Origin: an uncultured Alphaproteobacteria bacterium
GTDB taxonomy: Bacteria > Pseudomonadota > Alphaproteobacteria > RF32 > CAG-239
Assembly: GCA_944392295.1 (NCBI GenBank)
Contig: CALXWE010000004.1
Location: forward strand, 45,819-109,818
Direction of reading: 5' to 3'
DNA: 64,000 nucleotides
The notes under the pieces are model-generated. The model was not told the DNA's origin, made no database searches, and was given only the letters and a program-made list of their open reading frames with translations. Positions 37,257-43,486 of the stretch are shown one piece after another; position 1 is the stretch's first letter, and every line of letters begins with the position of its first letter. The position numbers were made by a program, and so were the translations under genes.

Positions 37257-38447
37257 TTACTTCAAGATTTTAGAAACTACACCGGCACCTACTGTGTGAC
37301 CGCCTTCACGAATAGCAAAACGTAAACCTTCGTTCATAGCAATCGGGTGAATCAATTTTGCTGTCATTGTGATGTTATCACCAGGCATTACCATCTCGGT
37401 TCCTTCAGGTAATTCAATCGAACCGGTTACGTCCGTTGTACGGAAGTAGAATTGAGGACGGTAGTTAGAGAAGAACGGAGTATGACGTCCACCTTCTTCT
37501 TTAGTCAAAATGTAGCATTCACAGGTAAATTCTGTGTGAGGTGTAATGGAGCCAGGAGCTGCCAATACTTGACCACGTTCTACTTCTTCTCTCTTGGTGC
37601 CACGCAACAATACACCAATGTTATCGCCGGCTTCACCTTCATCCAACAACTTACGGAACATTTCAATACCGGTACATGTTGTCTTTTGGGTCGGCTTAAT
37701 ACCTACGATTTCAATTTCATCGCCTACTTTGATTACACCGCGTTCTACACGTCCGGTTACCACTGTACCACGACCGGAAATTGAGAATACGTCTTCAATC
37801 GGCATCAAGAACGGTTTGTCCTTCGGACGATCAGGTTGCGGAATGTAGTTGTCTACGGCGTTCATCAATTCAATGATAGAATCGTGTCCAATCTTCGGAT
37901 CGCCGTTTTCCAATACTGCCAAGGCACTTCCTTTAATAATCGGAATTTCATCTCCAGGGAAACCGTAAGAGGTTAACAAATCTCTGATTTCCATCTCTAC
38001 CAATTCCAACAATTCAGGATCGTCTACTTGGTCTACTTTGTTCATGTATACAACAATCGCCGGTACACCTACTTGACGAGCAAGCAAAATGTGCTCACGA
38101 GTTTGCGGCATCGGTCCATCTGCTGCACTTACTACCAAAATTGCACCATCCATTTGGGCTGCACCGGTAATCATGTTCTTTACATAGTCTGCGTGGCCGG
38201 GGCAGTCTACGTGTGCGTAGTGACGCTTTGCTGTTTCATATTCTACGTGTGAGGTCGAAATGGTAATACCACGAGCCTTCTCTTCAGGTGCTTTATCAAT
38301 TTGATCATATGCAGTGAAGTTGGCTCCGCCTTGCTCTGCCAATACTTTGGTAATGGCGGCGGTTAATGTTGTTTTACCATGGTCTACGTGACCGATAGTT
38401 CCTATGTTGCAGTGCGGCTTGCTCCGCTCAAATTTCTCTTTTGCCAT
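37257..38447 (-). CDS. tuf: Elongation factor Tu
   Basis: [33 protein letters not shown]..., 396 aa. Start set at the ATG at 38447. The track ORF is artificially extended upstream through the two tRNA genes. Confidence 0.97.
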
Positions 38448-38501
38448 TGTTGCTCTACCTTTAAAAAAAAGATTAAATTGACTTCCGATATTTAAGGATT
38501 T

Positions 38502-38575
38502 TGGAGCGGGTGAGGGGAATCGAACCCCCGTAATAAGCTTGGAAGGCTTCTGCTCTACCATTGAGCTACACCCGC
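38502..38575 (-). tRNA. tRNA-Gly (anticodon TCC)
   Basis: The minus strand reads GCGGGTGTAGCTCAATGGTAGAGCAGAAGCCTTCCAAGCTTATTACGGGGGTTCGATTCCCCTCACCCGCTCCA. Cloverleaf with anticodon loop CT-TCC-AA and encoded CCA. Confidence 0.9.
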
Positions 38576-38605
38576 AAACTCTTAATATATCAGAAGCGAT
38601 TAAAC

Positions 38606-38691
38606 TGGTGGAGGGGGATGGATTCGAACCATCGTAGACGAAAGTCGACGGATTTACAGTCCGTTGCATTTGACCGCTCTGCCACCCCTCC
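38606..38691 (-). tRNA. tRNA-Tyr (anticodon GTA), long variable arm
   Basis: The minus strand reads GGAGGGGTGGCAGAGCGGTCAAATGCAACGGACTGTAAATCCGTCGACTTTCGTCTACGATGGTTCGAATCCATCCCCCTCCACCA. The tRNA-Tyr/Gly-tuf order is a common synteny. Confidence 0.9.
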
Positions 38692-40547: not shown

Positions 40548-40781
40548 TTAGTGTTGATATCTATATACCGTTTCCAGTATGTCGCCAAAGGTTTGCCAAT
40601 GGTCGACTTCTAAATCGGGGATGCAGATTGTAAAGTTGATTTCCAAGTCGTATGACAACATGTCTTTACAAAAGTCATCAAACCCCACATCAGCTAAGAG
40701 CGTATGCTCATCCATTTCCGGCAAGTCAGGTATAATAAACTCCATAAGCTCCCGGACTTTTTGTGTTACATTTATTACCAT
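40548..40781 (-). CDS. ACP-fold-like small protein lacking the phosphopantetheine-attachment Ser (paralog 1)
   Basis: 77 aa. ...LLADVGFDDFCKDMLSYDLE... aligns with the ACP DLGxDSLD helix II region, with Asp at the Ser position. Confidence 0.5.
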   Translation of the reverse strand: MVINVTQKVRELMEFIIPDLPEMDEHTLLADVGFDDFCKDMLSYDLEINFTICIPDLEVDHWQTFGDILETVYRYQH

Positions 40782-40929
40782 AATTATAAATATTTATGAG
40801 TATGGTAAATTTTGTGAAAAATATAGTCAAGTACTATTTATATGTATAATCTGCTAACTTTATGAAAAAAGTGCTTGCTTTTATAAAAAAGGGGTTTTAT
40901 ATAAGACTTGTTTGATTGTTAAAGTCAGA

Positions 40930-41140
40930 CGGGACGTAGTTCAGCTTAGGTCAAGCGCTTGCATGGGGCTGGAGGCGAAAAACGTTCCGGTGGAACGTTT
41001 TTAACGACAGACGAAGTTTTGTTATTTTGTTTTCAAACGATAGTTTGAGTAAATAAAAGTTACAAAACAAGTGACCGCAGCGAGTTAGCGATTGACTTTT
41101 GGGAAAAGGCAGAGCTTACGAGCCAGACAAGAAGTCGGAG
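40930..41140 (+). pseudogene. Disrupted tRNA-Pro-derived copy: 5' half, 159-nt insert, 13-nt remnant of the 3' half
   Basis: 40930-40968 (CGGGACGTAGTTCAGCTTAGGTCAAGCGCTTGCATGGGG) matches the intact tRNA-Pro at 41184-41222 except in the D-loop. 41128-41140 (CAAGAAGTCGGAG) is identical to 41224-41236 of the intact gene. No T-arm or acceptor 3' strand follows. Confidence 0.6.
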
Positions 41141-41183
41141 ACTTCTTGCACGGAGCACAAGGGATTATTATATGTTTTATATA

Positions 41184-41260
41184 CGGGACGTAGTTCAGCC
41201 TGGTAGAGCGCTTGCATGGGGTGCAAGAAGTCGGAGGTTCAAATCCTCTCGTCCCGACCA
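41184..41260 (+). tRNA. tRNA-Pro (anticodon GGG)
   Basis: CGGGACGTAGTTCAGCCTGGTAGAGCGCTTGCATGGGGTGCAAGAAGTCGGAGGTTCAAATCCTCTCGTCCCGACCA. Full cloverleaf with anticodon loop AT-GGG-GT and encoded CCA. Confidence 0.9.
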
Positions 41261-41263
41261 AAT

Positions 41264-41293
41264 AAAAAAACCGCCTTTATGGCGGTTTTTTTA
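41264..41293 (+). terminator. Rho-independent terminator after tRNA-Pro
   Basis: AAAAAAACCGCC TTTAT GGCGGTTTTTTT. Confidence 0.8.
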
Positions 41294-41468
41294 TTCGGAG
41301 AGGATTATCCTCTTTGGCATCTAATTTCGCTTACGGCAATTCATTGCCTTAGCTCAATAAAATGTTCCAAAGAACCTGCAGACAAAAAACGCCGGAGCAG
41401 CGGCGTTTTTTACTTAAATAAAAAAGATACATCGACACATAATGCAAGGTATCTTTAGCTATGACCTA

Positions 41469-41735
41469 TTACTGCAGCAAAAGGACTATAAATTGTTTAT
41501 CCATTGATACCGTAGGCTCAAATATATAGCCTTTGCGCCCATCACGTAATATTCTCCACATTCCGGGAATGCTTGTGCTGATTTCAAGGACAACCTCTCC
41601 ATCAAGTTTCCACTGAGCAGTGGTGCTCTTTTTGTTATTGGTGGTGAAAGTTGATTTTGAAAAGCCAAAACGCTTTCCCCTGGCGTCTACCGTAAAAGTT
41701 TTACTTTCGGTTAATGCTTCTAGAACTATTTCCAT
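41469..41735 (-). CDS. Hypothetical small protein (88 aa)
   Basis: ORF MEIVLEALTESKTFTVDARGKRF... with no clear SD. Hairpin terminator AACGCCG-GAGCAG-CGGCGTT (about 41384-41412) lies downstream. Weak call. Confidence 0.35.
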   Translation of the reverse strand: MEIVLEALTESKTFTVDARGKRFGFSKSTFTTNNKKSTTAQWKLDGEVVLEISTSIPGMWRILRDGRKGYIFEPTVSMDKQFIVLLLQ

Positions 41736-41920
41736 AAACAAAAAAATTAAAGAGTTATGATAATTTATTATACCTATGTATTTATATCACATCTTTTATT
41801 ATGCGCAAGTTTTAAATGTACATTAGATATAGATTCTGTGTTTGTTTTTTATTGTTGATTTTCTTGACTTTGCAACGCAAAGTCAGTACCTTGCCGGATG
41901 TTATTAAAAGGAGAATCGTG

Positions 41921-43072
41921 ATGAAAAAATTGTGGCTGGCTTTGATGCTTATTATATGCTCTGCCAATTCGGCTTGGGCTATGCAAATCTTTGTTAAAAC
42001 TTTAACCGGTAAACATATTACTCTGGAAGTTGAACCTACCGATACAATTGGAGACATAAAACTTAAAATTCAAGATAAAGAGGGCATTGCCCCAAGTGAA
42101 CAAACCTTGGTCTTTGCCGGAAAAGAACTTGAAGATGCTAATACTTTACAAGATTACAGCATTTTCAAAGATTCAACTCTGCATTTAGTCTCAAACAATA
42201 AGGTTACCAATTTATCATTAAATGTTAATCCGGCTCATATTGTAAGGCAAAATGCCGATATGCTGCTTAATAACGTTGCAGCTCGTACAAGCGGCGGGAT
42301 TAGCTCCTATAAAAGTGCCGAACAAATAAATCTGCAGGATAATACTTCTCTTTGGGTCAGCACTCTTGCCGGACATTCACAATATTTAAATACCGATACT
42401 TATGGTCTTTCGTTGGCCTTTGAAAAGAAGCTGGCAGATTTTAAATATGGTTTAGGTTATGCTTATTTAAAAAATGATATTGATGATGCTTTAAACACCG
42501 ATGTACAAAATCATTCCGGCTTTGTATATGCCGAATATAAGCCTTCAGCTTGGTATACCAATGCCATAGTTATGTATTCTCATTCGCGGTTTGAAGAAAA
42601 TGATTTTAATAAATATAACGTTCAAGCTATATCTTCTCAGTTGATGAGCGGATATGATTTTTATTATGTTACGCCGGAAATGGGAATTAGATATATCCAT
42701 ATTTGGAATAACCGCTATACCAATGCTCAAAATATGCAAATGACTAAAAATAATGAAGATATTTTAACGGGGGTTATCGGTATAAAGCTGGCAAAAGAGA
42801 TAACCTTAAATGCCGATTATAGTTTTGTTCCGCAAGCCAAGGTCTCGGCATTATATGATTTTTCACGAGCCAGCGGCGTTGCCAATGCTTATGTAAACGG
42901 CAAATATGCTGTTGTTCATAGTGATGTAATGGCTAAGTATGCCACGGAAATTAATGTCGGGCTTAAACTGGTTAAACAAAATTCGTGGGAGACTTATTTA
43001 GGCTATTATGCACAGTTGCGGAATAATTATAATATTCATTCCGTAATTGTTAATTTTGCCTATGACTTTTAA
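41921..43072 (+). CDS. Autotransporter with a eukaryote-type ubiquitin passenger domain
   Basis: SD AAGGAG, then ATG at 41921. Signal peptide [20 protein letters not shown] (41921-41980). Ubiquitin-like module [70 protein letters not shown] (41981-42190). Helical linker, then a ~235-aa beta-strand-patterned domain ending VIVNFAYDF (autotransporter/OMP signature). The track ORF start at 41816 is rejected. Confidence 0.85.
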
Positions 43073-43091
43073 AAGTCTTTTGCTTTAAAAC

Positions 43092-43128
43092 AAAAAAAAG
43101 AGCGGCTTTTGTAAAGCGGCTCTTTTTT
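43092..43128. terminator. Bidirectional terminator hairpin (copy 2 of the repeated hairpin)
   Basis: A-run, AGAGC-G-GCTT TTGT AAGC-G-GCTCT (43099-43122), T-run. Lies between the convergent ubiquitin-autotransporter gene and ACP-like paralog 2. Confidence 0.8.
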
Positions 43129-43149
43129 CTATTTCTTTACAATGATGTT

Positions 43150-43401
43150 CTACTCGGCGTGGCTTTCCACACTCTCATAGAATTCATCGAGCATGTACCA
43201 GTCATCATCGACTTCGTCGGCCGGTACATCAATACCGAGCTGCTCTTTGAGCAGTCTGGCAAGCTCCTGGCATTCGAATGCTCCGAAACCCAAATCGGCA
43301 GCAAGACCGATTCTTGCAGGGTCAATGTCGTTGATGTTGGAAGGCAGGGTACGAACCTGGTTCATGACTGCCTGTACTTTGTCTCTTAATTCTGTATTCA
43401 T
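43150..43401 (-). CDS. ACP-fold-like small protein lacking the phosphopantetheine-attachment Ser (paralog 2)
   Basis: 83 aa. ...GLAADLGFGAFECQELARLLKEQLGIDVPADEV... aligns along E. coli ACP (…[32 protein letters not shown]…), with Ala at the Ser36 position. Confidence 0.55.
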   Translation of the reverse strand: MNTELRDKVQAVMNQVRTLPSNINDIDPARIGLAADLGFGAFECQELARLLKEQLGIDVPADEVDDDWYMLDEFYESVESHAE

Positions 43402-43486
43402 GGCTATACTTATTGGTTAATAATTCAAATTTGTAAATGTATCCTAACGGAGTTTTTGCCACAAGTCAAGATATTTTTGTCAAAAT

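Follow-up and report, generated by a model that had tools for sequence, protein, structure and literature searches.

In the window, as we call the whole 64-kb stretch of DNA analyzed here, an intact tRNA-Pro(GGG) gene is located at 41184-41260 of the plus strand (ARAGORN; Rfam RF00005, 59.1 bits). Its intrinsic terminator follows at 41262-41298 as an inverted repeat with an A-run, a CCGCC/GGCGG stem and a T-run. Directly adjoining the gene on its 5' side, and on the same strand as all features described below, lies a unit of about 250 nt (40930-41183). It consists of tRNA-Pro positions 1-37, a module (132-160 nt) inserted at 37/38, tRNA positions 39-52 and an inverted copy of positions 48-37. 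A search for further copies of the unit within the 64-kb window found none.

A truncated tRNA-Pro copy and its flanking elements

The unit begins with a pseudo 5' half of tRNA-Pro(GGG) at 40930-40968, which corresponds to positions 1-37 and carries an altered D-loop and a C13-A22 mismatch. The sequence-only reading of this DNA had aligned the two copies by eye, noted that the D-loop alone differs, and allowed that the match might prove coincidental. Formal alignment with the first 38 nt of the tRNA gave 36 matches, 2 mismatches and 1 gap, with every difference confined to the D-loop. The local score was 56, against an average of 14.9 for 500 shuffles, none of which scored above 26, and this bears out the copy. 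The base preceding the insert is G37, and the insert is positioned at 37/38.

Downstream of the insert, a repeat search recovered the previously noted exact 13-nt match, CAAGAAGTCGGAG, at 41128-41140 and 41224-41236. By itself this repeat is non-significant in the window (BLAST E = 0.54), and it is kept in other lineages. The insert that had been described, a departure of 159 nt followed by resumption of the tRNA sequence, is real, but its 3' boundary needs adjustment: the pseudo-anticodon-stem strand CTTGC (40958-40962) has a possible pairing partner in GCCAG at 41122-41126, which means that the tRNA-like match restarts slightly earlier than had been stated. The tRNA-like sequence 3' of the insert ends at position 52. 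Both hairpins reported earlier are present, one of 11 bp at 40978-41002 and one of 9 bp at 41128-41148. The 3' arm of the second is longer than noted and reaches 41151. This hairpin, here termed P5 (41128-41151), comprises a sense copy of tRNA positions 40-48 (41128-41136), a loop, and an antisense arm at 41140-41151 directed against tRNA 37-48, which forms a perfect 12-nt complement of the intact tRNA at 41221-41232.

The check by ARAGORN that had been proposed, together with Rfam, returned for 40700-41450 a single tRNA-Pro(GGG) at 41184-41260 and no second tRNA. A tmRNA (including a permuted two-piece form) or a second tRNA was rejected on these grounds. We also rejected a leader peptide starting at an ATG in the anticodon loop, which has no Shine-Dalgarno sequence and whose open reading frame is unconserved in length and sequence.

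Two promoter-like elements can be read from the sequence, and we regard both as predicted. The distal one (promoter P1, 40875-40903) has a -35 box TTGCTT at 40875-40880, a 17-nt spacer and a -10 box TATATA at 40898-40903. The same layout, CTTGCA/T, 17 nt, TATATA(G), occurs about 12-26 nt 5' of the pseudo-half in other lineages, and directly 5' of the tRNA in the many tRNA-Pro loci that do not carry the unit. This element is below the threshold of a consensus scan, so that its activity can only be inferred. The putative proximal element (promoter P2, 41146-41174) has a -35 box TTGCAC at 41146-41151, which coincides with the end of the P5 antisense arm, and a -10 box TATATG at 41169-41174. It includes the AT-rich conserved sequence ATTATTAT at 41164-41171. 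Its geometry, CTTGC, 19 nt, TATAT, equals that of the distal element, and CTTGC and A-TAT are invariant in the alignment; the spacing to a -10-like hexamer suits most lineages, not all. Each -35 box shares 3 of 6 positions with the E. coli consensus, and neither was listed by the promoter and terminator consensus scan. The scan missed even the obvious terminator of the tRNA and was therefore not relied on.

A covarying four-way junction

On the tRNA strand, all 18 copies that were folded singly adopted the same architecture, a four-way junction made up of a closing stem P1, P2a/T1, P3, a linker and P4, with P5 after the junction. Stem P1 pairs the pseudo-anticodon-stem strand CTTGC with the 3' strand at 41122-41126, which reads GCCAG in the window, with one C-U mismatch, and GCAAG, GCGAG or GUAAG elsewhere. 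For most copies, the minimum-free-energy fold has this stem at the base of the junction, and in most copies located upstream of a tRNA the whole insert is closed by CUUGC:GCAAG. P2a and T1 (40969-41010) follow immediately after G37, with CTG at 40969-40971 paired to CAG at 41008-41010 and T1 (40978-41002) enclosed. P3 (41016-41068) is a long hairpin with GA-rich internal loops, in which GTTTTGT (41016-41022) pairs with ACAAAAC (41062-41068). The linker, TGACCGCAGC in the window (41072-41081; consensus UGACCGAAGC), consists of columns that are invariant in a 16-sequence alignment, and it was found in all three genomic arrangements described below. P4 (41084-41119) has a tandem G-A motif at its base; its stem sequence differs in almost every lineage, and the hairpin is always formed.

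Stem P1 shows 98.8% pairing across the alignment, and the changes in its 3' strand are wobble-compatible only. In P3, two-sided changes were observed in 9 of 12 pairs by RNAalifold and pair counts on a sequence-only alignment, and the folds of single sequences concur; a sub-alignment of P3 yielded no RNAalifold structure owing to a ±1 misregister, so that the full alignment and explicit pair counts were used. For P1, P3 and P5 combined, a MAFFT alignment built from sequence only was 94.2% paired as against 84.3% in shuffles, with a covariation score of 0.297 versus 0.120 (reached in 0 of 500 shuffles), and slid controls paired at 34-50%. P2a/T1 had 97.9% canonical cells versus 66% in shuffles and two-sided changes in 12 of 15 pairs, in an alignment that is biased toward pairing because it was built from each sequence's own fold. 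The P2a variants among lineages are CUG:CAG, CUU:AAG, CUC:GAG, CGC:GCG, CCG:CGG and CAU:AUG. Helices are thus kept by compensatory substitutions, and the fold of the module is under selection, which makes a neutral scar or a pseudogene unlikely. In addition, each of the 18 copies gave a more stable fold for the plus strand than for the minus strand (-51.2 versus -40.5 kcal/mol), which argues for an RNA made from the tRNA strand.

T1 resembles an intrinsic terminator. It is composed of an A-run, a 6-bp GC core and a T-run, so that a transcript of this strand would carry a GC-containing hairpin and then a U-run; termination at T1 is a prediction from this composition. The A and T runs are invariant and the stem is variable between lineages. 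No antiterminator fold competing with T1 was found, and because the T1 stems vary while the upstream pseudo-half is constant, a covarying antiterminator is impossible. Regulated attenuation is therefore unsupported.

Rfam searches for known families, including group I introns, riboswitches, ribozymes and known small RNAs, gave no match for the window at E <= 10 or for 12 other variants at E <= 1, and no curated covariance model assigns the module to the T-box or any other known riboswitch or ribozyme class. The search for a group I intron (RF00028) over this region, suggested by the sequence-only reading, was accordingly negative.

Distribution, exchange and phage junctions

A metagenome scan with the tRNA 5' half recovered 102 loci, ascertained by an exact tRNA 5'-half pattern. 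In about one-third of these, a second 5' half precedes the tRNA at about -254 to -233, with a homologue of the window's insert behind it; about 30 of the 102 fit a leader profile at E <= 1e-47. The unit adjoins tRNA-Pro in at least 19 diverged metagenomic lineages, and its 19 distinct modules have pairwise identities of 56-98% (median 67%), the number of independent lineages being uncertain. All comparison sequences are metagenomic assemblies, in which repeats can cause misjoins. The carriers form a clade of uncultured gut and rumen Alphaproteobacteria, and proteins encoded around the feature in the window affiliate with the uncultured gut lineage of 'Azospirillum sp. 51_20', CAG:495 and Ca. 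Scatocola. Orthologous pseudo-halves are present in at least 15 other lineages, several with a common derived D-loop, which indicates that the pseudo-halves are old. The region is clearly not the unconserved random sequence that comparison with relatives might have revealed.

Orthologous flanks occur both with and without the unit (L131/L141 versus L175, L163 versus L130, and others), and variants without the 5' part (L100, L188, L182, L116) resemble decay. Contigs of the same species as the window are 99.5-100% identical over the feature, with one polymorphism, at 41143. The closest other species (80% SpoU identity) has 63 nt between the 76-aa gene and the DUF2155 gene, so that positions ~40782-43486 of the window constitute a species-specific segment of about 2.7 kb. 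It contains the feature, the tRNA, two small open reading frames and one encoding a ubiquitin domain, and a search for att-like repeats bordering it found none. The closest relatives lack the tRNA as well as the unit, and the locus of the window thus has no counterpart.

The tRNA-derived parts of the unit bear marks of exchange with the neighboring intact gene. In L163 and L173, the pseudo-half has the variant acceptor sequence CGGAGTG of its own tRNA; a tRNA-type D-loop is present in the pseudo-half of L135, L163 and L173, and a pseudo-type D-loop in the intact tRNA of L141. Identical sequence precedes the pseudo-half and the tRNA in L135, L176 and L185, and tandem units occur in L177, L103, L135, L176 and L226. 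Three variant classes (AAGTC/GACTT, AAGCC/GGCTT, ATGTC/GACAT) show the P5 antisense arm tracking the variable-loop sequence of the tRNA that it accompanies, sometimes where the sense arm does not match it. This tracking fits either selection for complementarity or repeated conversion.

The module was found in three arrangements: 5' of tRNA-Pro(GGG), as in the window, 3' of tRNA-Pro(GGG), and 3' of tRNA-Pro(UGG). Its right border is always at tRNA position 39/40, and its left border is variable. In the second arrangement (L153, L183), the intact tRNA is followed by a small hairpin derived from tRNA 39-53, the module, a pseudo 3' part and a repeated terminator; the hairpin of L153 is an inverted duplication of antisense 50-39 and sense 42-53. 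In the third (L222, identified by a BLAST match in a phage collection, and L226 and L231, identified by a 15-mer scan of viral contigs), tRNA-Pro(UGG) is followed by its terminator, a 20-nt perfect palindrome of the 5' side of the anticodon arm, the module, tRNA 40-76 and a terminator. The module of this type contains the window-specific variants CTGGAGG, GACCGCAGCGAGTTAGCGA and GAGCCAGA, and is 75% identical overall to that of the window; L088 and L096 are similar at 76%.

Phage genes adjoin some of these loci. The pseudo 3' half of L231 is followed by a DUF2924 gene and a gene for a 568-aa large serine recombinase, and the same or a related phage is located 3' of tRNA-Pro(GGG) in L179, L117 and L180 and of tRNA-Pro(UGG) in L271. 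Homology between the phages of L179 and L231 begins at tRNA position ~41, which indicates that the phage brings the 3' half of the tRNA with it and that its crossover lies in the anticodon arm. The earlier proposal that the break in the anticodon loop marks an integrase-type site is borne out to this extent, in that phages of related loci integrate at the corresponding position. The map-radC-tRNA-Pro(UGG) host locus was found in three states: phage joined to the intact tRNA (L271), phage joined to the right edge of the module (L231, L226/L270), and the module without phage, followed by sugar-nucleotide genes (L222). At these junctions, the module may be either an arm of the phage or a resident secondary attachment site.

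Interpretation and comparison with known systems

The position of the unit, its arrangements and arrays, and the phage junctions together indicate that recombination at the anticodon arm of tRNA-Pro made the unit and still moves it. We favor, with a probability of roughly 0.5, the reading that the module is a selected non-coding RNA residing in a truncated tRNA-Pro paralogue, made and reshuffled by recombination at the anticodon-loop site, and probably serving as a leader with a leaky terminator. The unit would have originated by recombination within tRNA-Pro at the site used by the large-serine-recombinase phages of the clade, and continuing exchange with the neighboring intact tRNA would hold its tRNA-derived parts identical. 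More tentatively, the distal promoter of the paralogue would transcribe the pseudo-half, T1 would halt most transcripts, read-through would produce the complete structured leader, and RNase P would cut this leader off the tRNA, the tRNA itself being driven mainly by the proximal promoter with its -35 box in the P5 antisense arm. That the unit is a leaky-terminator leader of tRNA-Pro(GGG), or a non-coding RNA derived from such a leader, is suggested by its layout, and we hold this part with modest confidence. The strongest point against it is that, in the downstream arrangements, the module lies behind the strong terminator of the tRNA with no visible promoter, so that a leader function is not general. 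Of the three options in the sequence-only reading, namely an integration or excision scar, decay of a paralogue with an intron, and a small RNA gene derived from a tRNA, each is partly right. As to the second, a truncated tRNA-Pro paralogue interrupted at 37/38 is indeed present, but the insert is conserved and structured and has no group I match.

Possible, though on balance doubtful, is that the unit is a DNA relic or a miniature non-autonomous element of the phages that use the tRNA-Pro anticodon arm, with the module as a putative surviving arm beside attP. The head-to-head tRNA-derived palindromes would then be half-sites of the serine recombinase, and the hairpins would act as terminators at the phage ends or belong to an element-borne RNA of use to the element and not to the tRNA. 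The right edge of the module at 39/40 is where the phage homology starts, and the phage is joined exactly at this edge in L231 and L226. Moreover, att-region sequence is duplicated in inverted form at the end of every partial tRNA copy (P5 in the window, the L153 hairpin, the L222 palindrome), and the variable loop in the sense piece of L153, ATGTC, is the one found in the L117-type phage and differs from that of the L153 tRNA. Presence and absence at orthologous sites, tandem arrays and the location of the unit inside the 2.7-kb segment missing from the closest relatives are also what such an element would produce. Set against this, no recombinase gene was found in the 64-kb window or near any locus of the upstream type, and L222 has a module without any phage. 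Two 15-mer scans of viral contigs gave chance-level matches except for two contigs that also bear host genes, scans of viral contigs for tRNA-Pro 3' halves recovered att sites of other phages with the module absent, and no plasmid matched the module. Finally, a neutral scar would not be expected to show compensatory changes in four helices or an asymmetry between the strands.

A bolder idea, which we consider unlikely, is that these loci represent a new class of bacterial tRNA-embedded mobile RNA element, intron-like at tRNA-Pro 37/38 and able to hop between isoacceptors. It might be active by itself, in self-processing or in binding a ligand, or it might belong to the att site that serine-integrase phages recognize. 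No intact interrupted gene supports this idea. An even smaller chance is given to the related proposal that the module is a tRNA intron, degenerate or of a class so far undescribed, which would have entered tRNA-Pro at 37/38 and have persisted in dead, truncated paralogues alone. In its favor, the insert sits precisely at 37/38 with the anticodon stem closing it, the genes of two isoacceptors (GGG and UGG) are affected, and the three arrangements combined would rebuild a complete interrupted tRNA (1-37, module, 39/40-76). Yet both exons occur together in no copy, 13 variants match no intron or ribozyme family (E <= 1-10), the preceding base is G37 and not the U of group I 5' splice sites, and a terminator-like hairpin right after the 5' exon would block expression of the host tRNA.

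We disfavor, as very improbable, a neutral partial tandem duplication of the tRNA that is kept alike by gene conversion and whose hairpins are chance structures or simple terminators. Gene conversion and unequal crossing-over clearly occur at these loci, and truncated and decayed variants are known among them, but the non-tRNA module is beyond the reach of tRNA conversion and nevertheless keeps four helices at 33% median divergence, with a near-invariant linker. Last, an invertible switch, in which the perfect 12-bp inverted repeats at 41140-41151 and 41221-41232 flank the proximal promoter and the tRNA 5' half so that a flip would turn the tRNA off, was rejected: the repeat stays matched to the tRNA variant across lineages and serine recombinases are active at the site, but P5 and its tRNA-derived sense arm account equally for the match, an invertase is absent nearby, and a 5' half in each orientation within 800 nt was seen at none of ~35 loci.

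Should the fold be functional, the module represents an undescribed structured RNA family in a widespread uncultured gut lineage (RF32-like Alphaproteobacteria), built on a tRNA scaffold at the classic intron position. It would bear on how tRNA genes spawn new RNA genes, on the expression of the frameshift-prone tRNA-Pro(GGG), and on the evolution of phage attachment sites in tRNA anticodon arms. Attachment at a tRNA anticodon arm is unusual for large serine recombinases; the loci described here document the use of this arm, and of a look-alike junction on the module side, as attachment sites, which is relevant to tool development. On the practical side, the unit is a repeat that breaks assemblies and a possible source of misleading tRNA annotation.

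Among known systems, attachment-site scars in tRNA genes are one of the closest. Integrase sites in tRNA genes have reportedly been classified, in work attributed to Williams, with the anticodon loop as one sublocation. As in such scars, a partial tRNA copy lies next to the intact tRNA and is bounded within the anticodon loop or stem (at 37-40, the same as the phage junction), related loci have phages with a tRNA 3' half at the same point, and the unit is present or absent in relatives, with empty sites found at orthologous flanks other than the window's own locus. Unlike in such scars, it is the 5' half, and not the 3' part, that is duplicated in the window, whose copies have neither integrase nor element genes between them or next to them (adjacent element genes were found only in L231, L226, L179, L117, L180 and L271), related loci use a large serine recombinase and not a tyrosine integrase, and the intervening sequence is a conserved, covarying RNA fold.

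The bacterial group I introns of Azoarcus tRNA-Ile and Agrobacterium tRNA-Arg are likewise structured inserts of 130-250 nt in the anticodon loop that the anticodon stem closes. The last exon base before a group I 5' splice site is U. The unit differs in having G before the insert, no match to the Intron_gpI core (RF00028) in 13 variants, a 3' exon truncated at position 52, so that both exons are never together, and an intrinsic-terminator-like hairpin at the 5' end of the insert. We therefore rejected a group I intron. The position 37/38 is shared with archaeal and eukaryotic tRNA introns, and a separate 5' half followed by non-tRNA sequence recalls the split tRNAs of Nanoarchaeum. In the present case, by contrast, an intact uninterrupted tRNA lies 43 nt downstream, and the host is a bacterium, for which we know of no splicing endonuclease.

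A regulatory RNA derived from the spacer of a tRNA operon is known in 3'ETS-leuZ of E. coli. The unit resembles it, and attenuator leaders, as a structured RNA co-linear with a tRNA, from which release by RNase P would be expected, and with a terminator-like hairpin in the leader. It differs in that no target, sponge function or alternative antiterminator fold was found, in that the leader is built from a tRNA copy, and in that the module also occurs 3' of the tRNA. With the orphan structured-RNA motifs described by comparative genomics (Weinberg et al. 2010, PMC2864571; 2017, PMC5737381), the module shares a covarying multi-helix junction, conserved linkers and a narrow taxonomic range; unlike these motifs, it sits within sequence derived from a tRNA and is linked to a hot spot of recombination. 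A description of the element was not found in Rfam 15 or in the literature searched, and the unit is best filed as a combination of known kinds, a tRNA att-site duplication together with an orphan structured RNA.

Pseudo-tRNA variants and the -35-like box of tRNA-Pro promoters

The tRNA-Pro promoters of the clade carry a -35-like box, CTTGCA(T/C), which is found at many loci in both the distal (P1) and the proximal (P2) promoter regions. This box is identical to the 5' strand of the tRNA-Pro anticodon stem together with the start of the loop, and its reverse complement corresponds to tRNA positions 37-43. The identity may be a coincidence, or it may be the reason that the antisense arm, the 3' strand of hairpin P5, can double as a promoter element.

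A different pseudo-tRNA leader is located at about -190 upstream of tRNA-Pro at seven metagenomic loci (L112, L098, L162, L121, L167, L168, and L172). Here, tRNA positions 1-21 are followed by a different insert with its own A-run, hairpin, and T-run, and then by a complete pseudo-anticodon arm (CTTGC ATGGGAT GCAAG), all upstream of the intact tRNA. At four loci (L176, L161, L145, and L137), the D-loop of the copied tRNA-Pro 5' half contains an additional inserted hairpin of the CCGG-ACG-CCGG type.

The species-specific segment and the ubiquitin-domain ORF

A 2.7-kb segment of the window (approximately 40782-43486) is missing from the closest related species, in which the genes flanking it are only 63 nt apart. 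A search for direct repeats flanking this segment found none. Each border carries one small acidic ORF (40548-40781 and 43150-43401), and the two are weak paralogues with 35% identity over 46 amino acids.

An ORF of 418 amino acids (41816-43072, plus strand) encodes a hydrophobic N terminus, a ubiquitin domain resembling those of eukaryotes (residues 58-126; Pfam PF00240, E = 2.6e-24), and about 290 further residues ending in NFAYDF. This last part, which was covered by no match in the Pfam search, looks like an outer-membrane beta-barrel. The protein was also called on further contigs of the same species.

Other RNA genes and the tuf region

On the minus strand, the window contains a cluster of tRNA-Tyr, tRNA-Gly, and EF-Tu genes (38502-38691 and 37257-38450) and a bacterial small SRP RNA (273-367; Rfam RF00169, 60.2 bits). 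The contigs of many relatives stop some 1.3 kb upstream of SpoU, which would fit breaks in the assembly at a second copy of tuf.

Serine-recombinase prophages at tRNA-Pro

A family of prophages, each about 27-29 kb long and with genes for a DUF2924 protein and for a large serine recombinase (L231, 10185-12310; also L179, L117, L180, L271, and L267-L270), integrates into tRNA-Pro(GGG) and tRNA-Pro(UGG) within the anticodon arm and carries a host-matched tRNA 3' half. At L274, a second serine recombinase, 33% identical, adjoins tRNA-Pro(GGG).
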